Part shown: positions 1 through 17,494 of the stretch, piece by piece | Numbering within the stretch: position 1 is the stretch's first letter | Layout of the letters: each line of letters begins with the position of its first letter | DNA from: an uncultured Chloroflexia bacterium | GTDB taxonomy: Bacteria > Chloroflexota > Limnocylindria > Limnocylindrales > CSP1-4 | Direction of reading: 5' to 3' | NCBI GenBank assembly: GCA_963719145.1 | Contig: CAVRAX010000001.1 | Location: 71,544-135,543 of the forward strand | Length of the DNA: 64,000 nucleotides | The notes under the pieces: generated by a model | The model's input: only the letters and a program-made list of their open reading frames with translations | Told to the model about the DNA's origin: nothing | Databases searched by the model: none | Program-made: the position numbers and the translations under genes

Positions 1-2579
1 TCCTCCTTCGCGTACGAGTTCATGTCGCCGATCAGCAGGACGTCGCGGTCGCCGCTGCCGGTGGGGTCCGTCGCGAGCCAGTCGACCAATGCCTCGGCCG
101 CCATCGTCCGGGTGACGTTGCAGTTGCCCTGGCCGTCACCGGTGTCGGGGTCGCCGACGGCGTTGCAATCGGAGCCCTTCGACTTCAGGTGGTTCACGAC
201 GACCGTGAGTCGCCCGCCGCCCCCGGCGGCCTCGAACGTCTGGGCCAGCGACGGCCGGTTGAAGTCGTCGCGGAACCGGGCATCAACGTTGTGGTCGATG
301 ATGGCCGGCGAGCCGACCGGCGCGACCGCCGCCGGTCGGTAAACCAGGCCGACCTTGATCGCGTCGGTCCCGATCGTGCCGGTGTCGACGTAGGCATACG
401 TGCCGGCGCCGAGGTCGGCGTTGAGCCCGGCGACGATGTCCGCCAGCGACGCGGTGGCGTTGTTCTCGAGCTCCGTGAGCCCGACGATGTCGGCGTTCAG
501 GCCCTCGAGCGCCGCGAGGATCTTGGTCCGCTGGCGCTCGAGCTCGAAGGCGCTGTTCGCACCCCGGCAGTCGAGCCCGCCGCTCGGCCCGCAGATCGGG
601 GACCCGGTGTCGAGCGTCGTGAAGTAGTTCAGGACGTTCAGGCTCGCCACGCGAAGGTCGCCGCCGACCGTCGGCGGTGCCGCCGGGCGCGGGTTCGTGT
701 GGTCGAACTCGATCGGGCTGGCGTCGAAGACCGGCTGGACACGGTAGACGCCGAACCGGAAGTCCATCACGCCCGTGAGGCCGTCGAGGCTGTCGCCGAC
801 GCGGAGGGTGTTCGTGGCGCTCAGGCCGCCCTGGGGGTAGAGGGTCGGGTCGATGTTCTGCTGGTTGTCGCCGTCATCGAGCAGGATCCGGCTGCGGTCG
901 TTGAGGTCCTGGAGGGCGATCGCCGGCGCTCCGGGCGCGACGACGTTGGTCGGGTTGGCGAGCCGCCCCGCGGCTGACAGGGCGACCTCACCGAAGCGGG
1001 CCAGGGTGAAGACCTCGGTCACGGTGAGCTCCTGGTCGATCGAGATCCGCATGCCCTCGAAGGCTTCGAGGTCGTCGATCGAGGCGACCGGGAAGTCGAC
1101 ATCGGTGGCCGTCGGGAGCGGGTTGCCGGACGAGTCGATCGTGACGCCGGCGACCGAGCTGAGCTCGGTCAGGCCGCTGAACTCGGCGGCTGTTCCGCAG
1201 ACGGTCACGGCATCGCCGACGGCCACGTCCGGAGCAGTCGGGGCAAAGACGAAGATGCCCTCACTCGTTGCCGGATCCGCGTCAGCGTCGGAGTCCTCCT
1301 CCTGGACGTAGAAGCCGCCGAAGCCGCCGGGCTGCTGGTAGTCGCCGACGACGATGCCCTCGACGACCACGACGTCGCCGGCAAGCGGCGAGCTCGCGCC
1401 GTCGCCCTGGATCGCGTGGATGGGCGTCGCGGCGCTCGTGCACTGCGGCGGCGTGGCGCAGTCGTTCGCGGCGCCGGGAGTGGCCAGGTGGAACGACAGG
1501 TCGACGTTGTTCTGGTTCGTGTCAGCGCCGTCCGGGCAACGGGAGATCCCGGCACCGGTGAATGCCGAGTCATCCTCGAGGCCCGTCCCTGAGCCCTCGG
1601 TGTACGGCGCCGCCGTGTCGCCCTCGTAGCTCACGGCATCCACGAGCTCGGTGCCGTTCAGGAGGCCGACGGCATCGGGCGAGCCGTTCTGGATCAGGTT
1701 GGTGTCTGGGCTTACGTCGAGGTCACAGTTCGCGACCGTGGCGGCGTTGGCGCAGACGACGAAGTAGTCGCCGGCAGAGAGGGATTCGGCGGGCAGGGCG
1801 ATCGTGTCGTAGATTGCGCCGCCGTTGCCGTTGACAAGGACGACGCTCCAGCCGTCGAGATCGATGGTCGTGCTGCCGACGTTCTTGAGCTCGACGAACT
1901 CCGCTGTATCCGTGCTCGGCTGGTCGTAGTCGATCTCGTTGATGACGAGGCTGCCCGCGGTCGGGCAGTCGTTCGCCAGGCCGGGCGTCGCCGGCCGCAG
2001 GGTGAAGTCGGTAGCGTTCACGTCCGTGTCGGCGCCGTCCGGGCAACGCGACAGGCTGTCGGCGGCGTTCACCCCGTCGTCGACCAGGCCCGCGCCCGAC
2101 CCCTCCGTGTACGGCGCCCCGGTATCGCCCTCGTAGCTGAGGGCATCGACGACGGTCGCGCCGAAGCGCAGGCCGATGCCATCGGGCGCTCCGTTCTGGA
2201 TGAAGTTCGTGTCGGGACCGTCGTCGAGGTCACAGTTCGTGACCGTGACGGCGTTGGCACAGACAACGAAGTAGCCGCCGGCGGGCAGGGTCACCGACGG
2301 CAGCGCGATCGTGTCGTAGGCCACGGCCCCGCCGCCGTTGCCGTTGACCAGCTCGAGGGTGTAGCCGCTGAGGTCGAGAGCCGTCGGGCCGACATTCTTG
2401 AGCTCGACGAATTCGGCGGCGTCGGTTCCCGGCTGGTCGTAGTCGACCTCGTTGATGACCAGCGTCGTCGAGACGGCGGCGGCTGACGGGGCGAGGCCGA
2501 CGAGCCCGGCCACGAGCGCCGCGGCCGCGGCGGTCGCAAGGCGCGCGCGAACGGGCGAGCGCCGGATGGAGGTCTGGGA
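1..2579 (-). CDS. Secreted ExeM/NucH-family extracellular nuclease, partial (C-terminus runs off window start). It has a signal peptide, two lamin-tail domains (LTD) and an endonuclease/exonuclease/phosphatase (EEP) domain.
   Basis: Continuous minus-strand frame from a GTG at 2579 (RBS GGAGGG upstream) to position 1. It is absent from the ORF track only because it is incomplete. The N-terminus MSQTSIRRSPVRARLATAAAAALVAGLVGLAPSAAA is signal-like. There are two repeats of LVINE(V/I)DYDQPGTD.AEFVELKNVG...GNGG...YDTIALP...FVVCAN...NCDLD (LTD). Downstream, LRVASLNVLNYF...GLTELENN...VVVNHLKSKG matches the EEP nuclease fold of the ExeM/NucH family. Confidence 0.8.
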
Positions 2580-2736
2580 CACGATTGAACCCTCCACAGG
2601 TGGCTGTGGGAATGCCCACGGGTTTCGGCCCATCCTAGTCCCGGAAACTCCACCAGACCCCACCGAACCGTTGAGGACTGCACCGGAATCGTTGCGTCCG
2701 CGCAACACGAGTGGCGCCGCAGCCGTCCGGGTGTGG

Positions 2737-4422
2737 CTAGCCCTCGCCGAGCATCGGGACTCGGACGCCGCGCTCCCGAGCGACCTCGACCGCCCGGTCG
2801 TATCCGGCGTCGACGTGACGGAGGACGCCCATCGCCGGGTCCGTCGTCAGGACCCGCTCGAGCTTCTGCGCAGCGAGGTCTGTGCCATCCGCGACGACGA
2901 CCATGCCGGCGTGCTGCGAGTACCCGATCCCGACGCCGCCGCCGTGGTGGATGCTGACCCAGGTCGCGCCGGCAGCGGTGTTGACGAGGGCGTTGAGGAG
3001 CGGCCAGTCGGCGACCGCATCGGACCCGTCGAGCATCGCCTCGGTCTCGCGGTTGGGCGAGGCCACGGAGCCCGAGTCCAGGTGGTCCCGGCCGATGACG
3101 ATCGGGGCAGCGACCTCGCCCGTTCGGACCAGCTCGTTGAACGCCAGGCCGGCCTTCGACCGCTCGCCGTAGCCGAGCCAGCAGATCCGGGCCGGCAGGC
3201 CCTGGAACGGGACCCTGGCCTCGGCCATCTCGATCCAGCGCCGCAGGCCCGCATCCTCCGGGAAGAGCTCGAGGATCGCCCGGTCGGTCCGGAGGATGTC
3301 CTCGGGATCGCCGCTCAGGGCGGCCCAGCGGAACGGCCCGCGGCCCTCGCAGAACTGTGGCCGGATGAAGGCCGGCACGAAGCCCGGGTAGTCGAAGGCG
3401 TCCTCGACGCCGGCCTCGACCGCCATCGCCCGGAGGTTGTTGCCATAGTCGAAGACGACCGCGCCGGCCCGCAGGAACGACAGCATCGCCCGGACGTGGG
3501 CGCCCATCGCCCGGATCGACCGCCGGATGTACTCCTCGGGCTGGCTCGCGCGCAGGAGTAGCGCGTCGCCGAGCGCGATCTCGTCGGGCACGTAGCCGCC
3601 CAGTGGGTCATGGGCGGAGGTCTGGTCGGTGACGACGTCGAACTCCTCGCCGGCGGCGGCCCAGGCCGGCTCGATCTCGGCGGCGTTGCCGACGAGGGCG
3701 ATGCTCCGAGCCTCGCCGGCGGCCGCCCATGCCCGGGCCGTTGCCAGCGCCTCCGCCGGGTCCGCGGTGATGGCCTCCACGTAGCCGATGTCGAGGCGGC
3801 GCCGGGCCCGCTGCTCGTCGACCTCGATCGCCAGGCAAACGCCCTCGTTCATCGTCACCGCGAGGGGCTGCGCGCCGCCCATGCCGCCGAGCCCGGCCGT
3901 CAGCGTGACCCGGCCGCGCAGTGTTCCGCCGAAGTGCTGCCGGGCCAGCTCGGCGAACGTCTCGTAGGTGCCCTGGAGGATGCCCTGGGTGCCGATGTAG
4001 ATCCACGACCCGGCGGTCATCTGGCCGTACATCATGAGGCCCCGCCGTTCGAGGTCGCGGAAGTACTCCCAGGTGGCCCACTTCGCCACGAGGTTCGAGT
4101 TGGCGATGAGGACGCGAGGGGCCCACCCATGGGTCTGGAGCACGCCGACCGGCTTGCCGCTCTGAACGAGCAGTGTCTCGTCGTCGCCGAGGCGGCGGAG
4201 CTCGCGGACGATCGCGTCGAACGCGTCCCAGCTGCGGGCCGCCCGCCCTGTGCCGCCATAGACGACCAGGTTGTCGGGGTCCTCCGCAACCTCGGGATCG
4301 AGGTTGTTCATGAGCATCCGGAGGACGGCTTCCTGCTGCCAGCCGCGACACGAGATCTCGGTGCCGCGGGGGGCGCGGACCGGCCGGGCGCCTGGGAGAG
4401 GCTGACGAGCCTCGGTCACCAC
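2737..4422 (-). CDS. hutU: Urocanate hydratase (urocanase)
   Basis: 561 aa with full-length similarity to HutU, including conserved blocks [15 protein letters not shown] and [13 protein letters not shown]. Confidence 0.95.
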
Positions 4423-10052: not shown

Positions 10053-11759
10053 TCAGAAGAGCCCGACGATCTCCCCGGCGGCGTCGATATCGATGTTCTC
10101 GCCGCCCGGCCGTGACGGCAGGCCCGGCATCGTCCGCATCTCCCCCGCGAGCGGCGTGACGAACCCGGCGCCCGCCGACAGCCGAACCTCGCGGACGGGC
10201 ATCCGGAAGCCGGTCGGTCTGCCCTTCAGCGAGGCGTCATGGCTCAGCGAGTACTGGGTCTTGGCCATGCAGATCGGGAAGTTGCCGAATCCCAGGGCCT
10301 CGTACTGCTTGAGCGAGCGGGTTGCCGCGGGCAGGTAGTCGACGCCGTTGGCCCCGTAGACCTTCGTCGCGATGGCTTCGATCTTGTCGGCGAGCGGGGC
10401 GTCGTCACCGTAGAGGAACTGGAAGTCCGGGGCTCCCTCTTCGGCCGCGGCCCAGACCGCGGCGGCGAGCTCGGTCGCTCCGGCACCGCCCTCGGCCCAG
10501 TGGTTGGCGACGACGGCATCGCGGGCGCCGGCCTCGAGGGCGACCCGACGAACCGCCTCGACCTCCGCCGTCGAATCGGTCGGGAAGGCGTTGATCGCGA
10601 CCACGACCGGCACGTTGAAGAGGCTGACATTCTCGATCTGCTTCGCGAGGTTCTGGGCGCCGCGGGCGACGGCCTCCGGGTTCTCCTCCTGAAGGGCCGG
10701 GTCGAGCGGCTTGCCAGCCACGATTCGGCCGACCCCGCCGTGCATCTTGAGGGCCCGGATCGTGGCGACCACGACGGCGGCGTCAGGCCTGAGCCCCGAG
10801 GCTCGACACTTGATGTCGAAGAACTTCTCGGCGCCCATGTCCGCCCCGAAGCCGGCTTCCGTGCAGACGATGTCGTTCGTGACGAGGGCGATCCGGTCGG
10901 CGAGGACGGAGTTGTTGCCGTGGGCAATGTTGGCGAACGGTCCGCAGTGGACGAACGCCGGCCCACCCTCCAGCGTCTGGAGCAGGTTCGGCTTGATGGC
11001 GTCCGTGAGGAGGGCGGTCATCGCCCCGGCGACCTTGAGGTCGTCGGCCGTGATCGCCGCTCCGTCCCGCGTCGTGGCCAGGACCATCCGTCCCAGCCGA
11101 GCGCGGAGGTCGGCAAGATCGCGAGCGAGGGCGAGCACGGCCATCACTTCCGAGGCGACGGTGATCACGAACTCGGTCTCGCGGGGGTACCCGTTCCCGC
11201 GGCCGCCGAGGCCGACGACGACCTTCCGGAGGGCGCGATCGCTGATGTCGACAGCCCGCGGCCAGAGAACATTGAGGGCATCGATCGCCAGGGCGTTGCC
11301 GTGGTGGATGTGGTTGTCCACGAACGCCGCCCCGAGGTTATGGGCCGCCCCGATCGCGTGGACGTCGCCGGTCAGGTGGAGGTTGAAGTCCTCCATCGGG
11401 ATGACCTGGCTGCGCCCGCCGCCCGCCGCGCCGCCCTTGATCCCGAAGACCGGCCCGAGGCTGGGCTGACGGAGGCAGACGGCCGCCCGATGTCCGATCC
11501 GGTTCAAGCCCTGGGCGAGGCCCACGGTCGTCGTGCTCTTGCCCTCGCCCAGCGGTGTCGGGGTGATCGCGGTGACGACGACATACTTGCCACGCGGCCG
11601 TTCGGCCTCCAGGCGCTCGATCCCGGCGAGGCGGATCTTGGCCTTCGTGAAGCCGTAGGGCTCGACCTCGTCATCGTGGAGGCCGAGCTCGCGGGTGAGG
11701 TCGAGGATCGGGCGCGGCGCGACGGAACGGGCGATCTCGAGATCGGATTGCGGGCTCAT
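10053..11759 (-). CDS. fhs: Formate--tetrahydrofolate ligase
   Basis: 568 aa with full-length FTHFS similarity (PTPLGEGKSTTTVGL, FANIAHGNNS). Its ATG overlaps the folD stop (ATGA). Confidence 0.95.
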   Translation of the reverse strand: MSPQSDLEIARSVAPRPILDLTRELGLHDDEVEPYGFTKAKIRLAGIERLEAERPRGKYVVVTAITPTPLGEGKSTTTVGLAQGLNRIGHRAAVCLRQPSLGPVFGIKGGAAGGGRSQVIPMEDFNLHLTGDVHAIGAAHNLGAAFVDNHIHHGNALAIDALNVLWPRAVDISDRALRKVVVGLGGRGNGYPRETEFVITVASEVMAVLALARDLADLRARLGRMVLATTRDGAAITADDLKVAGAMTALLTDAIKPNLLQTLEGGPAFVHCGPFANIAHGNNSVLADRIALVTNDIVCTEAGFGADMGAEKFFDIKCRASGLRPDAAVVVATIRALKMHGGVGRIVAGKPLDPALQEENPEAVARGAQNLAKQIENVSLFNVPVVVAINAFPTDSTAEVEAVRRVALEAGARDAVVANHWAEGGAGATELAAAVWAAAEEGAPDFQFLYGDDAPLADKIEAIATKVYGANGVDYLPAATRSLKQYEALGFGNFPICMAKTQYSLSHDASLKGRPTGFRMPVREVRLSAGAGFVTPLAGEMRTMPGLPSRPGGENIDIDAAGEIVGLF

Positions 11760-12706
11760 GCGGTTCCTCGGAGCTTGGGCGGCGAAGCGACGCCGGGCGA
11801 CGGATCGGCCGGCGACGACGCAACCACGGAGGTGCCCGCGGCCTGCCGTTGGGCAGCGCGGACGAGATGGGCCAGGAGAAGGGCGTTCGTGAGCGGCCCG
11901 ACGCCCCCCGGCACCGGCGTGATCGCCGCCGCGACCTCGCGGGCGGAGGCGAAGTCGACGTCGCCGACGATCCGGCCGTCGACGACGTTGATGCCGACGT
12001 CGATGACGACCGCCCCGGGCTTCAGCATTGCGCCGGTCAGGAGTCCCGGCCGCCCCGCGGCCACCACGACGATGTCCGCGCGCCTCGTGTGGGCCGCGAG
12101 GTCGCGTGTCTTCGAATGGCAGACCGTCACCGTCGCCCCGCCCTTCACGAGCATGAACGCGACGGGCATGCCCACGACGGGCGAGCGACCGATCACGACC
12201 GCGTCGGCGCCCGAGATCGGCGCGCCCGACCGCTCGAGCATCTCGAGCGCGGCGTGGGCGGTCGCCGGCACGAATCCCTCGAAGCCGAGACGCAGGAGCC
12301 CGGCGTTGAGAGGATGGATGCCGTCGATGTCCTTGAGTGGATCGATGGCATCGACCACCGTCCGCAGCCGGATCCCGGGTGGCAGCGGCATCTGGACGAT
12401 GACCCCGGACACCGTGACGTCGTCGCCCAGCCGACGAAGAACGGCTTCGAGCTCGGCCTCCTGAGCAGCGGGGTCGTCACCCGCCACGTCGACGAACCGG
12501 GCCTCGATGCCGACGGCCGCACAGGCCTTCAGGATCCGTTCGAGGTAGACCATCGACGGCGCGCTGCGGCCGCAGACGACGACCGCCAGACCGGGTGGGC
12601 GGCCGTTGGCCGCCACGAAGCCGGCGACATCGGTGGCGACCTTCCCCCGGATCTCCTCGGCGATCGGAGCGCCTTCGAGAAGGCGCGCGCCGGCCTGCAA
12701 CGTCAT
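11756..12706 (-). CDS. folD: Bifunctional methylenetetrahydrofolate dehydrogenase / methenyl-THF cyclohydrolase
   Basis: The internal start MTLQAGARLLEGAPIAEEIRG... has FolD motifs (PGLAVV, VIGRSPVVGMP, PVPGGVGPLT). The 586-aa track ORF is an upstream over-extension. The ATGA overlap with the upstream gene's stop fixes the start. Confidence 0.9.
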   Translation of the reverse strand: MTLQAGARLLEGAPIAEEIRGKVATDVAGFVAANGRPPGLAVVVCGRSAPSMVYLERILKACAAVGIEARFVDVAGDDPAAQEAELEAVLRRLGDDVTVSGVIVQMPLPPGIRLRTVVDAIDPLKDIDGIHPLNAGLLRLGFEGFVPATAHAALEMLERSGAPISGADAVVIGRSPVVGMPVAFMLVKGGATVTVCHSKTRDLAAHTRRADIVVVAAGRPGLLTGAMLKPGAVVIDVGINVVDGRIVGDVDFASAREVAAAITPVPGGVGPLTNALLLAHLVRAAQRQAAGTSVVASSPADPSPGVASPPKLRGTA

Positions 12707-13425
12707 CCGATCGGAGCTACCGGGGGTCGCGCTTCGCCGCTGGCCACCACCTCGTGGGTGACTGAGCACAGCCCACCGATGCGTTCGAGCATGTCGGCGA
12801 GACGTTGCTCGGTCGCTTCTGCCCAGGCGGGATCGCCGATCGAGGGCAGGTTGACGCGGACGTTGGCCGCCGCGCCCTTGGCGGCCGCCTCGGTCAGGAG
12901 CGCGGCCACGTGGAGGTCGGACGACGCGTTGACGTTGCAGCGCGCGGCCAGCAGCTCGGCCGCGGTGACGACCTCGAGGCAGGCCTCGACGCAGCGGAGC
13001 GGGACTTCGGCAGCGACCCTGGCGGCGCCCCGGATGGCCTCGGCGCGGGTGATCTGCTGCTCCTCCGTGTCGCGGGCGAGCTTGAGGGCCGCCGAGAACG
13101 CGCCGTAGGCGGCGGCGTCCTCGTCGGCGATCCGGAGCAGCCTGTCCGCCAACTCCGTCCCGGCGGCCTTCGCCCGCGCATGCACCTCCGCGTGCATCGC
13201 GTACCTGGGCCGTCCCTCGGAAAGCGAGGCGACCATCACGACCAGGCCCGCGGCCAGGCTCGCCGCGATCGCGGCCGCGCTGCCGCCGCCGGGAACCGGC
13301 GCCGGTGAGGCGAGTCGGTCGATGAAGGTACCGAGGGTCAGGTCCCGGAACCGAGTGGGATCGTCCTGCACGCCGCCGATTGTAGGCGCGCCGGCGTGGC
13401 CGGCGGGGGCCGGATGACCCACCAT
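12703..13425 (-). CDS. Formimidoyl-THF cyclodeaminase / methenyl-THF cyclohydrolase (FtcD cyclodeaminase-domain family)
   Basis: Contains the conserved TLGTFIDRLASPAPVPGGGSAAA N-terminal motif of cyclodeaminase/FchA proteins. The start is uncertain: ATG near 13425 or GTG near 13371. The track over-extends to 13530. Confidence 0.8.
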   Translation of the reverse strand: MVGHPAPAGHAGAPTIGGVQDDPTRFRDLTLGTFIDRLASPAPVPGGGSAAAIAASLAAGLVVMVASLSEGRPRYAMHAEVHARAKAAGTELADRLLRIADEDAAAYGAFSAALKLARDTEEQQITRAEAIRGAARVAAEVPLRCVEACLEVVTAAELLAARCNVNASSDLHVAALLTEAAAKGAAANVRVNLPSIGDPAWAEATEQRLADMLERIGGLCSVTHEVVASGEARPPVAPIG

Positions 13426-13674
13426 GTGGGCGCAATCCGGCTCTCTGTCGGGCACGGGGCGGGCGCGGTACCGGCCGCGCCCGCCCCGTCTCGACGCCCG
13501 GCGAGGGAGGAGCCATCGCCGGATGGGCACTGCCCAGGCCTCGTGGGAGATGAGCCCGAGCGGGGAATTCAGCTACCGCGCCGGCCCGCGGGGTTCCTGG
13601 CGCCGGCGTGATTCAGATGTGGCGAAGATGCATGGTTTCGCGCCGGGATCGCATCGCCAAGGCGGCGGCGAAAT

Positions 13675-13941
13675 TCAGGCCGCGCGGTGCTCGTCCATCC
13701 CCTCGATCGCCCAGCGCCGCGCGCGATGGCGATAGGAGAGCGTCAGTCGGGCGACCGGCGTGTCGACCTCGAAGATCGTCCTGGGGCCGACGACGACCGG
13801 ATAGGCCGAGGTCTCCTCGCGCACCGCGAGGACCTGGGTGACAGGCACGCGCTGGGCATGCCAGGTGATCTCTCGGGGACGGCCGTCGAACCAATCGGCC
13901 CTGACCCTGACCTGGACCGGCTCGACTCGGATCATGGCCAC
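13675..13941 (-). CDS. Small hypothetical protein under SOS (LexA) control
   Basis: About 88 aa (VAMIRVEPVQVRVRADWFDGRPREITWHAQRVPV...). The GTG start is preceded by AAGGAG. Its promoter lies 70-115 nt upstream and carries two LexA boxes. The track ORF is extended to 14097 and would run through those boxes. Confidence 0.45.
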   Translation of the reverse strand: MAMIRVEPVQVRVRADWFDGRPREITWHAQRVPVTQVLAVREETSAYPVVVGPRTIFEVDTPVARLTLSYRHRARRWAIEGMDEHRAA

Positions 13942-14007
13942 GGATGGCTCCTTTCCCGGGGGCGGAAGGTGCATCTGGTCGCTCCGTCGGCCGGGCACTG
14001 GTCGTAC

Positions 14008-14061
14008 AGAACGGGTGTTCGATATGCTCGGAGCGTAGACCGAACACCTGTTCGATGTCAA
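14008..14061 (-). promoter_or_regulatory. SOS promoter: -35 TTGACA, a LexA box in the spacer, -10 TACGCT, and a second LexA box just downstream
   Basis: The minus strand reads cgcTTGACAtCGAACaggtGTTCGgtcTACGCTccgagcatATCGAACacccGTTCTgt. The first box matches the CGAAC-N4-GTTCG operator exactly. The second box is one mismatch off (GTTCT, 11/12 core positions). Confidence 0.6.
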
Positions 14062-14115
14062 GCGTCCGGGTTCCGACGCACCGGACGATCGAGCCACCGC
14101 GTGCCAGCTAGCCTG

Positions 14116-15498
14116 TCACGCCCGATTGGACGGCTCGACGACTTCGTCAACATCCGGCTGGCCCGCCCCGACGTCGATGTCGACGTCGGGATCCGGTGCC
14201 ACCGGCGGTGGGGCCTTCGGCCGCTTGCGGCCGGACCGCTCGACATCGGCCGCGAGCTCCCCGCGGCGTTCGGTCGCCGTCCCGAAGTCGCGCTCGAACG
14301 GCGCGGGTAGGCCGGCCCGGAGAAGCCGGGCCCGGGTGACGGCCCGAGGGCCGAAGCGGCGACGCAGCTCGTCGGCGGCCTCGACCGCTCGTCGGCGGCG
14401 CGGGTCGAGCGTCTCGAACAGCCCGAGCTGCTCGCGGTCGCCGAAGCCCGAGGCGGTGACGCCGAGGAGCCTGATCTTCCTGCCCCGGATCTCCGGCCGA
14501 GCGAGCTCGAGCGCCGCGCGCCAGATGGGCTCGGTCAGGTCGGTCGGCTCGGCCAGTGCCCGCTGGCGGGTGACCGTCCGGAACGTCGTGTCCCGGACCT
14601 TGACCGTCACCGTCCCAGCCTTCACTCCGGCCGAGCGGAGCCGACCCGACACCCCCTCGGACAGGGCGAGCAGGGTGCGCTCGAGGACATCCGGGTTGGA
14701 CGTGTCCCGGTCGAAGGTCGTCTCGTGGCCGATCGTCTTCGCCGCGTCCGGGTCGTCGACGGGGTCGGGATCCAGCCCATGGGCGCGATCAACGAGGCTG
14801 GCGCCATGCTGGCCAAACCGACGGACGAGGGCGACCCGATCCATCGCCGCGAGGTCGCCGATGGTGACAACGCTGAAGTCGCGCAGCGCGGCGGCCGTCT
14901 GCGGCCCGACACCCCAGAGGCGGGAGATCGGCAGTGGCGCGAGAAACGCCGCCTCCTCGCCCGCGGGGACGACGACGAGGCCGTCCGGCTTGCGGAGATC
15001 CGAGGCGATCTTCGCCACCAGCTTGGTCGCGGCGACGCCGACCGACGCCGTCAGCTCGAGCTCACCCCGGATCGTGGCCTTGATCCGCCGGGCGATGGTC
15101 GGGCCGTCGCCGAACAGGGCCCGTGACGCGGTCACGTCGAGGAAGGCCTCGTCGATGGAGATCGGCTCGACGAGCGGGGTGAAGCGTCGCAGGATCGCCA
15201 TGACCTCGCGGCTCACCCGCTGGTAGGTCCGGCCGTCGACCGGGACGAAGATGCAATCGGGGCACAGCCGGCGGGCGGTCCGGATCGGCATCGCCGAGTG
15301 GACGCCGAACTTGCGCGCTTCATAGGAAGCGGCGCTCACGACACCTCGATCGTTCGTCCCGCCCATGCCCACGGCGACCGGCTTGCCCCGGAGCTCCGGG
15401 TGGTCGCGCTGCTCTACCGAGGCGAAGAAGGCATCGAGGTCGACGTGCAGGATCGTCCGCGGGGACAAAGCGGCGGGCTCGGCGCGAGTCGCGGCCAC
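14116..15498 (-). CDS. dinB: DNA polymerase IV (Y-family translesion polymerase)
   Basis: 460 aa containing the Y-family motifs ILHVDLDAFFASVE and SIDEAFLD. Confidence 0.9.
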   Translation of the reverse strand: MAATRAEPAALSPRTILHVDLDAFFASVEQRDHPELRGKPVAVGMGGTNDRGVVSAASYEARKFGVHSAMPIRTARRLCPDCIFVPVDGRTYQRVSREVMAILRRFTPLVEPISIDEAFLDVTASRALFGDGPTIARRIKATIRGELELTASVGVAATKLVAKIASDLRKPDGLVVVPAGEEAAFLAPLPISRLWGVGPQTAAALRDFSVVTIGDLAAMDRVALVRRFGQHGASLVDRAHGLDPDPVDDPDAAKTIGHETTFDRDTSNPDVLERTLLALSEGVSGRLRSAGVKAGTVTVKVRDTTFRTVTRQRALAEPTDLTEPIWRAALELARPEIRGRKIRLLGVTASGFGDREQLGLFETLDPRRRRAVEAADELRRRFGPRAVTRARLLRAGLPAPFERDFGTATERRGELAADVERSGRKRPKAPPPVAPDPDVDIDVGAGQPDVDEVVEPSNRA

Positions 15499-15634
15499 GG
15501 GCGCATCTTCGCGCCGGCCGTCAACTGCCGTTCGGTCGGCTGACGCGGCCGGCAGGCCTGTCTTGCCCCCGCCTCGGGTCGATCTGCCCGTTCGTGAACG
15601 ATGCCCGGCGGCGGAACTGGGGCGCCGACGCTCT

Positions 15635-16081
15635 CTAGCCCTTCGGCTCGACGACCACGGTGACCTCGGGCGTCATGCCCGAGAGGACCTTGACGGCGAC
15701 CTTGTAGGTGCCGAGCGACTTGAGCGGCTCCTCGAGCTCGATCTTGTGCCGGTCGACCTCGATGCCCCGCCGGCCGAGCGCGTCGGCGATGTCCTTGGCC
15801 GTGATGGAGCCGTAAAGCTTGCCGCCGTCGCCGACCTTGACGCCCATCGTGAGCGTCGTGGATGCGATCCGGGTCGCCGCGATCTCGGCGTCCTCGCGCT
15901 CGCGCTTCCGCTTCTCCTCGCGCGACGCGATGTCGTGCTGCCAGGCTCGATAGGCGCCGCCGGCCGCGGGCACGGCGAGCCGCTGGGGGATGAGGTAGTT
16001 GGTGGCGAAACCGTCGGCCACCGACTTCATCTCGCCCGACCTGCCGAGCTTGGCGATGTCCTGGGTCAGGATGACCTTCAC
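15635..16081 (-). CDS. rplI: 50S ribosomal protein L9
   Basis: 148 aa with the L9 N-terminal signature (MKVILTQDIAKLGRSGEMKSVADGFATNYLIPQRLAV). Its GTG start overlaps the upstream gene's stop (GTGA). Confidence 0.9.
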   Translation of the reverse strand: MKVILTQDIAKLGRSGEMKSVADGFATNYLIPQRLAVPAAGGAYRAWQHDIASREEKRKREREDAEIAATRIASTTLTMGVKVGDGGKLYGSITAKDIADALGRRGIEVDRHKIELEEPLKSLGTYKVAVKVLSGMTPEVTVVVEPKG

Positions 16082-16614
16082 GCGATCGAACCCTCCTTCG
16101 TGATCCAGGCTCGAAGTCTGGGGCCGACGCCTGAACGTTGCAACGCCTCGCCGGCCGCGGCGACGACGCCGGGAAGCCGCCGCACCGCCCGCCGGACGGG
16201 GCCCGGGAGGAGACGCCGAATTCGGGCGATATCCTCGTCGAACGCCGCCCGCTCGATGCTCAGCTCGTCGAGCTTCTCATCGAGGACCGCCGGATCGATA
16301 CCATCGAGAAAGAGCTCGATGGCGATGGCCACGACCACGAGGTCGTCGAGCCCCCCGACGATCGGAATGTCGTCGGGAATGATGTCCCGCCCGAGGACGA
16401 CGTAGCCGAGGCTCCCGGCGAGCAGCGCCTTGCGCGAGGTGGGGGTCCTGGCATCGACCGCGAGTGACCAGACGAGCCGGGTATACAGGGGCGCCCGGCT
16501 GGCGACGGGCAGCAGGGCCAGCAGGCCGAGCGCGCGGCGGAGGCTCCCGCCGGTGCTGCCGCCGCGCCTCCGGCGGCCCCGATCGTTGCCTGCCTTTCCA
16601 TCCTGCCGAGCCAT
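16078..16614 (-). CDS. DUF1232 (YkvA-like) membrane protein
   Basis: The internal start MARQDGKAG... carries the DUF1232 motif (GRDIIPDDIPIVGGLDDLVVVAIAIE). The track's N-terminal extension is low-complexity and was discarded. Confidence 0.7.
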   Translation of the reverse strand: MARQDGKAGNDRGRRRRGGSTGGSLRRALGLLALLPVASRAPLYTRLVWSLAVDARTPTSRKALLAGSLGYVVLGRDIIPDDIPIVGGLDDLVVVAIAIELFLDGIDPAVLDEKLDELSIERAAFDEDIARIRRLLPGPVRRAVRRLPGVVAAAGEALQRSGVGPRLRAWITKEGSIA

Positions 16615-16699: not shown

Positions 16700-16790
16700 G
16701 GCGCTGTGGGCCGGGGTGGGCCGGGGTGGTTGTCCGGGGTGGTGGGCCGGGGTGGCTGTCGTTGCCGGGGTGGCCCGATCCCGGGATGGT
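16700..16790. repeat. GC-rich imperfect tandem repeats with core CCGGGGTGG (about 6 copies)
   Basis: gggccggggtgggccggggtggttgtccggggtggtgggccggggtggctgtcgttgccggggtggcccgatcccggg. It lies between the divergent DUF1232-rplI-dinB unit and lexA. Confidence 0.6.
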
Positions 16791-16817
16791 TGACATCGAA
16801 CGTTCGTTCGGTATCAT
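16790..16817 (+). promoter_or_regulatory. lexA promoter with an SOS box in the spacer
   Basis: gTTGACAtCGAACgttcGTTCGgTATCATg. The LexA box (CGAAC-N4-GTTCG) sits between -35 and -10, about 30 nt upstream of the lexA GTG. Confidence 0.7.
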
Positions 16818-16843: not shown

Positions 16844-17494
16844 GTGACCAGGCACGATGCCGATCGCAAGCTGAAGATCCTGCACCACATCGCGGGGACC
16901 CTGCGGGCGCGTGGGTATCCACCGTCGGTCCGCGAGATCGCGCGCGCAGTCGGCCTCAGCTCAACGTCGGCCGTCCACCATCACCTCCAGATCCTCGAGA
17001 AGGACGGGTACCTCGAGCGTGGCGCCGCCCAATCGCGGGCGATCCGCCTCACGCCGACCGCTGCGCTGTCACTCGGGCTCTCGAGCGAGCTCGTGCCCCA
17101 GTCGGGTGCGGCGGACGCTCACGTCGTCCCGATCGTCGGCGAGATCGCTGCAGGCGGCCCGATCGAGGCGTACCAGGACGCCTCCGAGACGATGGCGGTC
17201 CCCGAGATCCTCGCCCCCAGCGGCGATGCCTACGTGCTCCGGGTCCGAGGCGACTCGATGATCGACGCCCACATCGCTGATGGGGACTTCGTCCTCATCC
17301 GGCCCCAGAACACCGCCCATGACGGGGACATCGTCGTCGCCCAGGTCGAAGAGAACGCGGTGACCCTCAAGACATTCTTCCGCGAGAAGGATCGAGTCCG
17401 CCTGCAGCCGGCGAACGCCAACTACCCGGCCCAGTTCTACCCGGACGTGCGGATCCAGGGAAAGCTCATCGGCGTGATCCGGCGGCTCGACTGA
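16844..17494 (+). CDS. lexA: LexA repressor
   Basis: GTG start behind AGGAGG. Contains the winged-helix motif (SVREIARAVGLSSTSAVHHHLQILEKDGYL) and the S24 peptidase domain (GDSM..., KTF). Confidence 0.95.
   Translation: MTRHDADRKLKILHHIAGTLRARGYPPSVREIARAVGLSSTSAVHHHLQILEKDGYLERGAAQSRAIRLTPTAALSLGLSSELVPQSGAADAHVVPIVGEIAAGGPIEAYQDASETMAVPEILAPSGDAYVLRVRGDSMIDAHIADGDFVLIRPQNTAHDGDIVVAQVEENAVTLKTFFREKDRVRLQPANANYPAQFYPDVRIQGKLIGVIRRLD

Follow-up and report, generated by a model that had tools for sequence, protein, structure and literature searches.

Known and proposed small beta-rich partners of Y-family polymerases

Several Y-family DNA polymerases carry C-terminal extensions that bring in other proteins. 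In Pol V, YqjW-YolD and ImuB, the platform for RecA (or ImuA) and a small subunit consists of a RecA-NT motif and, behind it, either a conserved tail or an ImuB-C domain (Timinskas and Venclovas 2019, PMC6511836). Aravind et al. (2013, PMC3765255) described ImuB-C as a domain rich in beta structure in which a C-terminal Trp is highly conserved and basic residues are also kept. A 2026 survey describes it as a beta-barrel without a close relative in the Protein Data Bank (PDB) and lists it among the putative small subunits of Y-family polymerases bearing a RecA-NT motif (PMC12926913). Standalone ImuB-C proteins are most often paired with DinB, in operons that often also encode LexA (PMC3765255); the order SRAP-LexA-ImuB-C-DinB appears in that paper's supplement in the entries for Geobacter and Pelobacter. 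The locus described here comes from an uncultured Chloroflexia bacterium (GTDB Limnocylindria; Limnocylindrales; CSP1-4) and lies in a stretch of 64,000 nucleotides, called the window below, that spans positions 71,544 to 135,543 of contig CAVRAX010000001.1 (assembly GCA_963719145.1). Next to dinB, on the minus strand, it contains a small open reading frame (ORF) behind a promoter with two LexA boxes. The family of its product is most likely a divergent standalone ImuB-C, a homology that is moderately well supported and not proven, and the ORF probably encodes a free-standing ImuB-C beta domain that would serve a DinB-RecA translesion complex as its small, SOS-gated subunit.

Standalone ImuB-C proteins of the GSU0042 type (DUF6504/PF20114; PMC3765255, PMC6511836, PMC12926913) share several features with the new family. 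Both are small all-beta domains of about 90-100 residues with a common C-terminal Trp, conserved basic residues and no PDB relative; both are encoded beside DinB and LexA, and a profile-profile match extends over the whole domain. The new family differs in scoring below the Pfam threshold for DUF6504 and in gene order, which is dinB-ORF here and lexA-imuB-C-dinB in the Geobacter entry of the published supplement. Further differences are a separate promoter bearing two LexA boxes, a C-terminal Ala-Ala and a hairpin in the 5' untranslated region (UTR), the last two being conserved; named homologues of the new family come only from metagenome-assembled genomes (MAGs) of Chloroflexota (Limnocylindria).

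Comparison with ImuB itself reveals the same order of modules (Y-family core, clamp motif, RecA-NT-like motif, ImuB-C) when DinB and the small ORF are read together, and LexA control is common to both. In contrast to ImuB, this DinB retains catalytic residues, and the ImuB-C module is encoded separately. Neither imuA nor dnaE2 is present in the window, nor are recA and imuB. A similar logic is found in UmuD'-UmuC (Pol V) and in YolD/YqjX with YqjW/UvrX, where a small, beta-rich, LexA-controlled and proteolytically limited subunit accompanies a Y-family partner that has a RecA-NT motif and then a conserved tail. There is, however, no homology to UmuD' or YolD (no Peptidase_S24 or YolD match), and no self-cleavage site is evident. 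The Escherichia coli symE gene, an SOS gene repressed at several levels, shares tight LexA control, a likely RNA-level element and likely proteolysis; it differs in that no antisense RNA, no SymE/AbrB-fold match and no evidence of toxicity were found for the small ORF.

A conserved two-box LexA promoter

LexA boxes of the GAAC-N4-GTTC type belong to Firmicutes and Actinobacteria, and variants have been reported in Chloroflexi (PMC4951493). With the consensus CGAAC-N4-GTTCG, two exact boxes are found in the window against 0.06 expected from shuffled sequence, one in the promoter of the small ORF and the other in that of lexA. Allowing one mismatch gives 8 boxes against 4 expected, so weight is placed only on exact sites and their context. 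Both promoters have the same layout, with an exact box between the -35 and -10 hexamers (Table 1), and the cognate lexA thus bears in its own promoter the box type of the small ORF, consistent with auto-regulation. At the small ORF the operators overlap the core promoter, one box lying in the spacer and the second at the transcript start, which is predicted near position 14025 from the placement of the -10 hexamer. A default promoter scan did not pick up this promoter, because TACGCT fits TATAAT at only three of six positions.

These elements had been described in an original prediction made from the sequence of the window, and its reading of them stands: the hexamers, the 18-nt spacer and both boxes are in place, as are the TTGACA-box-TATCAT arrangement at lexA (16790-16817) and the AAGGAG with its GTG-started ORF of 88 codons (13675-13941). 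The supplied ORF list does, as was remarked, over-extend the gene through its own promoter, to position 14097 and 140 aa. The distance of 70 nt given to AAGGAG is correct from the start of box 2 and becomes 54 nt from its end, and the peptide quoted at that time begins at Met3 rather than at the GTG.

Conservation of the boxes in relatives, which the original prediction proposed to look for, is extensive. Taking one genome per GTDB species yielded 80 orthologous loci, 79 of them with enough upstream DNA. In all 79, the -35 hexamer is TTGACA, box 1 begins 7 nt past its first base, and a second box with at most two mismatches follows 36-42 nt after the -35. Box 1 is perfect in 77 of these loci and has a single mismatch in the remaining 2. 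The half-sites are invariant while the central N4 varies (AGGT, ACCT, GCCC, ATGT, AGAC and others), as expected of a site that is selected for protein binding. The -10 hexamer takes the forms TAGGCT, TAGTCT, TACTGT, TATCCT or TATGCT in relatives, the conserved form being TAnnnT, and (A)AGGAG is also kept. The same two-box promoter is present in a sister clade (L081-L083) in which protein identity is only 35-40%, and also in branches that have diverged further (L085-L087), one of them marine; across the divergent clades that have it, the proteins are only 30-40% identical. In L084, a DDE transposase gene (499-1824) has taken the place of the -35 and box 1, and box 2 alone remains. Sequence alone could give no stronger support for LexA control of the small ORF, and LexA binding and induction by damage would be expected at this promoter.

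Table 1. Features of the small-ORF locus, its dinB neighbour and lexA (window positions)
Feature	Position	Strand	Basis or remark
-35 hexamer TTGACA	14056..14061	-	read from sequence
Promoter spacer, 18 nt	14055..14038	-	read from sequence
LexA box 1 CGAACAGGTGTTCG, exact, palindromic, within the 18-nt spacer	14054..14041		read from sequence
-10 hexamer TACGCT, TAnnnT type	14032..14037	-	read from sequence
LexA box 2 CGAACACCCGTTCT, one mismatch	14021..14008		about +4 to +18 of the predicted transcript
5'-UTR hairpin, loop AGUGCCC at 13993-13999	13980..14013	-	local fold -14.4 kcal/mol
Shine-Dalgarno AAGGAG, 6 nt before GTG	13948..13953	-	read from sequence
Small ORF, 88 aa, GTG start (13941..13939), stop 13677..13675	13675..13941	-	standalone ImuB-C-like protein (most likely)
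C-terminal Ala-Ala codons	13678..13683	-	family alignment
dinB, DNA polymerase IV, catalytic residues present, presumed partner	14116..15498	-	Pfam IMS/IMS_C/IMS_HHH; NCBIfam equivalogs above cut-off
DinB residues 357-361 QLGLF, beta-clamp-binding-type motif	14416..14430	-	conserved in 78 DinB C-termini
DinB residues 371-393 AVEAADELRRRFGPRAVTRARLL, RecA-NT-like motif (tentative)	14320..14388	-	conserved block; hhalign
DinB residues 398-404 PAPFERD, short conserved tail behind the RecA-NT-like motif	14287..14307	-	PFERD at least 95% conserved, n=78
lexA	16844..17494	+	TIGR00498 lexA 189.9 bits; Pfam LexA_DNA_bind and Peptidase_S24
lexA promoter: TTGACA 16790-16795, exact box 16797-16810, TATCAT 16812-16817	16790..16817	+	sequence and box scan

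The small ORF encodes a conserved protein family

The ORF lies in DNA of 70% G+C, where long chance ORFs are expected on both strands, and the conserved DNA could in principle be purely regulatory or part of the opposite-strand ORF at 13687-14310. This possibility is practically refuted by about 1,000 homologues with conserved length, start and stop, by the codon pattern and by a confident structural model. A single-sequence search with the product gives 388 homologues at E ≤0.01 and a profile search gives 993, nearly all of them 86-93 aa long, so that amino-acid conservation across relatives, on which the original prediction had staked its case, is found. Across 81 orthologous sequences, codon-position entropy is 0.60, 0.37 and 1.16 bits for positions 1, 2 and 3 in the frame of the small ORF, the third-position value being three times that of the second. 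This is a coding signature and indicates that the small ORF is a real gene whose product is itself strongly constrained by purifying selection. Because relatives share the N-terminus MAMIRV, and many of them have ATG as the first codon, the GTG is the true start.

The family is narrow: when 1.84 billion cluster representatives were searched exhaustively with HMMER, only 154 clusters matched. All named homologues are from MAGs of Chloroflexota or "Candidatus Limnocylindrales", and in public MAGs they are annotated as hypothetical proteins. One homologue (P0090) is named 'cytochrome oxidase assembly protein ShyY1' by one source, almost certainly a mis-annotation. In another locus (L079), an IS3-type element (2437-3796) parts the ORF from the upstream genes, and the protein ends in RLP, not AA.

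The product has an isoelectric point (pI) of 10.5, with 14 Arg in 88 residues and neither Cys nor Lys. An AlphaFold2 (AF2) model with a predicted local distance difference test (pLDDT) score of 84.8 contains seven strands (residues 4-15, 22-27, 30-33, 36-43, 54-60, 64-71 and 76-84) and suggests a small, soluble, basic, all-beta protein. The earlier picture of a tightly operated LexA-type promoter driving a real protein of this kind is thus borne out. All of 95 diverse members have W77, R41 and P53, and conservation of R54 and R76 reaches at least 90%.

Probable relationship to ImuB-C

The Pfam model DUF6504 (PF20114, gathering threshold 24.2 bits) represents the ImuB-C domain, because an authentic ImuB C-terminus matches it and ImuB fragments carry it. 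An imuB-dnaE2 pair is present on the Sinorhizobium meliloti plasmid pSymA (imuB at 20879-22387 of L091), and residues 429-499 of this ImuB match DUF6504 with an E value of 0.0069 and 17.0 bits, below the cut-off. Among homologues of the ImuB C-terminus, which carry PF20114, the labels in use are "protein ImuB" and "DUF6504 family protein". Some ImuB genes are themselves named 'DUF6504 family protein' by NCBI. Since a bona fide ImuB falls below the cut-off, the model is narrow, and the failure of the new family to reach it is not disqualifying; the highest score in the family is 16.4 bits (E 0.011), and the protein of the window gives no match.

The relationship was examined further by profile-profile comparison. 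When the family is aligned by hhalign with alpha-proteobacterial ImuB-C only, the result is marginal (P 0.02-0.04; none of 60 shuffles as good). A more diverse ImuB-C profile was built by adding eight plasmid-borne ImuB C-termini that represent Bacteroidota, alpha-proteobacteria and beta-proteobacteria. Against it the score is 26.1 over 76 aligned columns (P = E = 2.6e-4), and residues 7-82 of the query are matched to 11-98 of the 100-residue ImuB-C domain. In 100 column-shuffled controls, scores are 10.9 +/- 2.0 with a maximum of 16.7, and none is as good. This match is best regarded as moderate and not decisive.

Structural and motif comparisons agree with the alignment. For an ImuB C-terminus, AF2 predicts strands at 18-29, 39-42, 45-59, 72-80, 85-92 and 103-109, and the strand order is alike in the two models, following the alignment register. 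The small-ORF protein and ImuB-C also have the same weak PDB neighbours, and, as in ImuB-C, the protein is a mostly beta domain of about 90-100 residues without a close PDB fold. Also present are the conserved Trp of the C-terminus and two or more conserved basic residues, with the family motif RRW-x-[IV]-E-G aligning to ImuB [HR]-W-[FY]-x-H-G, and genomic association with a Y-family polymerase and LexA is found as well.

Searches for other identities were negative. The protein has neither homology to UmuD (Peptidase_S24) or YolD (PF08863) nor an SH3-like core. The features of SOS division inhibitors, namely a SulA fold or a membrane anchor that may be accompanied by LysM, are absent: there is no Pfam or NCBIfam match, and the model is soluble and all-beta. 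PHROGs yields one weak match only, to an unnamed family (E 6e-4), and tblastn against phages and plasmids gives nothing significant. The original prediction had proposed that the product, of unknown function, may be a new SOS effector. That suggestion gives way here to a probable divergent branch of ImuB-C, standalone members of which had already been described (PMC3765255, PMC12926913). With an ImuB-C identity, adjacency to dinB becomes key to function and is not incidental.

DinB as the presumed partner

The gene immediately upstream of the ORF is a co-oriented dinB in 77 of the 80 loci; in the window dinB ends 54 nt upstream of the small-ORF -35. The order lexA-dinB-ORF is found in L081-L083, and the dinB-ORF pair is kept where the upstream context has changed (for example to two unknown genes) and in the marine clade. 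In L081-L083, lexA and dinB are co-oriented and dinB follows at a distance of 14-116 nt. The gene located after a Nonomuraea dinB proved to have no relationship with ImuB-C.

Beyond its catalytic core, DinB has an extension with three successive elements. The first, QLGLF, we take to be a clamp motif from the QLxLF consensus. The second aligns by hhalign with RecA N-termini at a score of 14.9 against 8.7 +/- 1.7 for shuffles, none of 60 being as good. The third is the PAPFERD tail, past which the C-terminus is variable and acidic or proline-rich. The architecture of the extension is that of Y-family polymerases with small subunits. Given the platform role of the RecA-NT motif and tail in Pol V, YqjW-YolD and ImuB, the ORF product would by analogy be a small subunit, and PAPFERD may be its docking site, as with the tails of UmuC and YqjW (PMC6511836).

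A read-through fusion of DinB and the ORF was considered and rejected. In the window the two share a reading frame, with one TGA and 58 sense codons between them; the same is true of only 13 of 82 loci and is a coincidence. Database 'fusion' proteins (P0143, P0144, P0185 and P0232) are frameshifted assemblies.

An ImuB-C-type domain need not be a dedicated DinB subunit, and might instead sense DNA or DNA damage on behalf of several repair systems. A DNA-binding role was the original proposal for ImuB-C, and standalone copies are also found beside Ku/ligase, SplB and SRAP genes (PMC3765255). The very basic composition of the protein (pI 10.5, 14 Arg in 88 residues) is compatible with this role, as is a dinB that has no LexA box in this clade. 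AlphaFold models of the mycobacterial mutasome, however, put ImuB-C at interfaces with the proteins DnaE2 and ImuA (PMC12926913), linkage to dinB is strict across clades, and no DNA-binding fold was recognised in the small-ORF protein. A sensor independent of DinB is therefore rather unlikely, and the DinB subunit is the preferred reading.

The downstream folate genes and other neighbours

Synteny in the class is rigid, with the order rplI-dinB-ORF-FTCD_C-folD-fhs. The one-carbon folate genes FTCD_C, folD and fhs occupy 10053-13530 on the minus strand of the window, downstream of the ORF. FTCD_C follows the ORF on the same strand in 72 of 80 loci and fhs in 67 of 80, and no intrinsic terminator was detected between the ORF and these genes. 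The SOS promoter could thus serve chiefly to supply nucleotide precursors after damage, with the small ORF as a passenger. Such an arrangement is very unlikely, given that the gaps between the ORF and FTCD_C run from 130 to 1,000 nt or more and that the protein itself is under strong purifying selection. In L083, moreover, a convergent formyltransferase gene lies 4 nt past the ORF stop and the two-box promoter is still there, so the ORF can be a monocistronic unit. SOS read-through into the folate genes is possible in the window and, because of L083, not general.

A gene for a DUF1232 membrane protein lies at about 16078-16590 on the minus strand, divergent from lexA, and shares its operator region (16797-16810). 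The Pfam name is taken from the homologous loci L081-L083, where the pairing with lexA is also kept. Gram-positive SOS division inhibitors are often placed divergent from lexA, and the DUF1232 gene could be a further SOS gene.

The 5'-UTR hairpin and the C-terminal Ala-Ala

The leader of the small ORF contains a moderately supported hairpin element. The sequence GUGCCC is invariant in 20 diverse 5' UTRs, whereas the stems around it differ between clades; in the window, CGUUCU of the outer stem, which is the right half of box 2, pairs with GGAGCG. Contiguous helices around GUGCCC measure 4.4 against 3.2 +/- 0.2 in flank shuffles, and a covariance model places the element as expected in nearly all loci. 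For a fixed 12-bp model, covariation is 0.137, compared with 0.100 in shuffled alignments (0/500 as high) and 0.037-0.100 when the model is slid. A single fixed structure fits moderately, with 66% of cells paired. An Rfam search of the 5' UTR returned no family. The idea that the UTR loop pairs with the region of the start codon was considered and set aside, since the three invariant pairs proposed by RNAalifold are without covariation and the pairing is extended only in L081-L083. A second strong covariance-model match (L079, 7110-7151) lies inside a coding region and is due to chance.

At the other end of the gene, 237 of 264 full-length family members end in -AA-COOH, and the final Ala is present in 253. 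The terminal Ala-Ala is independent of the length of the tail, which extends 9-27 residues past the conserved Trp. It is absent from ImuB, which ends in ...HG-x-F-[AG]. C-terminal signals of the ssrA type act as degrons. By analogy, the Ala-Ala may be a putative ClpXP-type degron; ClpXP turnover of SOS proteins is mentioned in PMC3765255.

Genes for harmful late SOS products typically show the kind of control suggested here: a double operator, an additional element in the UTR and a likely degron. Together with the rigid synteny and the lack of a threshold-passing family match, these features fit a new effector that has nothing to do with polymerases, for instance a division inhibitor or growth-arresting toxin that sits beside dinB by accident. 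This explanation is judged unlikely. The full-length profile match to ImuB-C and the matching strand order argue against it, there is no transmembrane segment or LysM, unlike in YneA, ChiZ, DivS and SidA, and linkage to dinB survives a change of both flanks.

A proposed LexA-gated subunit for DinB

Several results weigh against the assignment of the small ORF as an ImuB-C subunit of DinB. The window protein has no match in Pfam, NCBIfam or PADLOC, and a PDB sequence profile search finds nothing even at E 10. Weak DUF6504 matches occur in 14 of 95 family members, yet the unrelated Peptidase_S6 scores in 11 of 95, so that Pfam alone cannot discriminate. HMMER cross-searches against alpha-proteobacterial ImuB-C are no better than decoys, and the hhalign probability of the match to the diverse ImuB-C profile is only 42%. 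On the polymerase side, Pfam finds no DUF4113 or RecA match at the DinB C-terminus, and the tentative RecA-NT assignment depends on a weak alignment. No LexA box, with up to two mismatches allowed, precedes dinB in 57 of 67 species of the clade (the upstream region in the window is 15499-15634), so co-regulation of dinB and the ORF is at most a possibility. Because the synteny is so rigid, adjacency to dinB is by itself weak evidence. The roles proposed for degron and hairpin are pure inference.

The reading that probably accommodates the evidence best is nevertheless that of an SOS-gated ImuB-C subunit. The small ORF has its own sigma-70-type promoter, with one LexA dimer site between the -35 and -10 hexamers and a second over the transcript start. 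In an undamaged cell, LexA would stop both RNA polymerase binding and promoter escape, leaving the gene nearly silent; RecA-stimulated cleavage of LexA would then allow its transcription. The product is predicted, by analogy, to bind the adjacent DinB, RecA or both, which would give a multi-subunit translesion complex like Pol V or ImuB, with an active polymerase and ImuB-C supplied in trans (a 'split ImuB'). Through its C-terminal Ala-Ala the protein would be a substrate of ClpXP-type proteolysis, and the 5'-UTR hairpin would act as an added post-transcriptional check, such that the complex is present only while damage lasts. If this model is true, the damage signal enters via the accessory gene, dinB itself being without a LexA box.

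A more elaborate proposal is that two LexA operators, the GUGCCC hairpin (read by some further factor) and the Ala-Ala degron form a three-layer switch on a trans-acting ImuB-C whose polymerase is LexA-independent, and that Limnocylindria would control error-prone synthesis in this way. It is tentative, and doubtful as a whole. If true, it would represent a Pol V-like control logic built from unrelated parts and would offer the first tractable handle on standalone ImuB-C function.

ImuB-C is an essential and biochemically uncharacterised module of bacterial mutasomes, which drive damage-induced mutation and drug resistance. Standalone ImuB-C proteins have, to our knowledge, been predicted by comparative genomics and never studied experimentally. 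The present family offers an 88-aa soluble example with a clear regulatory signature and, in DinB, an obvious candidate partner, and a small soluble protein with such a partner makes binding and lesion-bypass experiments feasible. It also indicates that the Pfam model DUF6504 is too narrow and misses many true ImuB-C members. The conserved C-terminal Ala-Ala and the 5'-UTR hairpin with its invariant GUGCCC loop are new details of such proteins and their genes. On the most likely assignment of the family, the SOS regulon and the LexA/DinB/ImuB-C module extend to an uncultured class of Chloroflexota.

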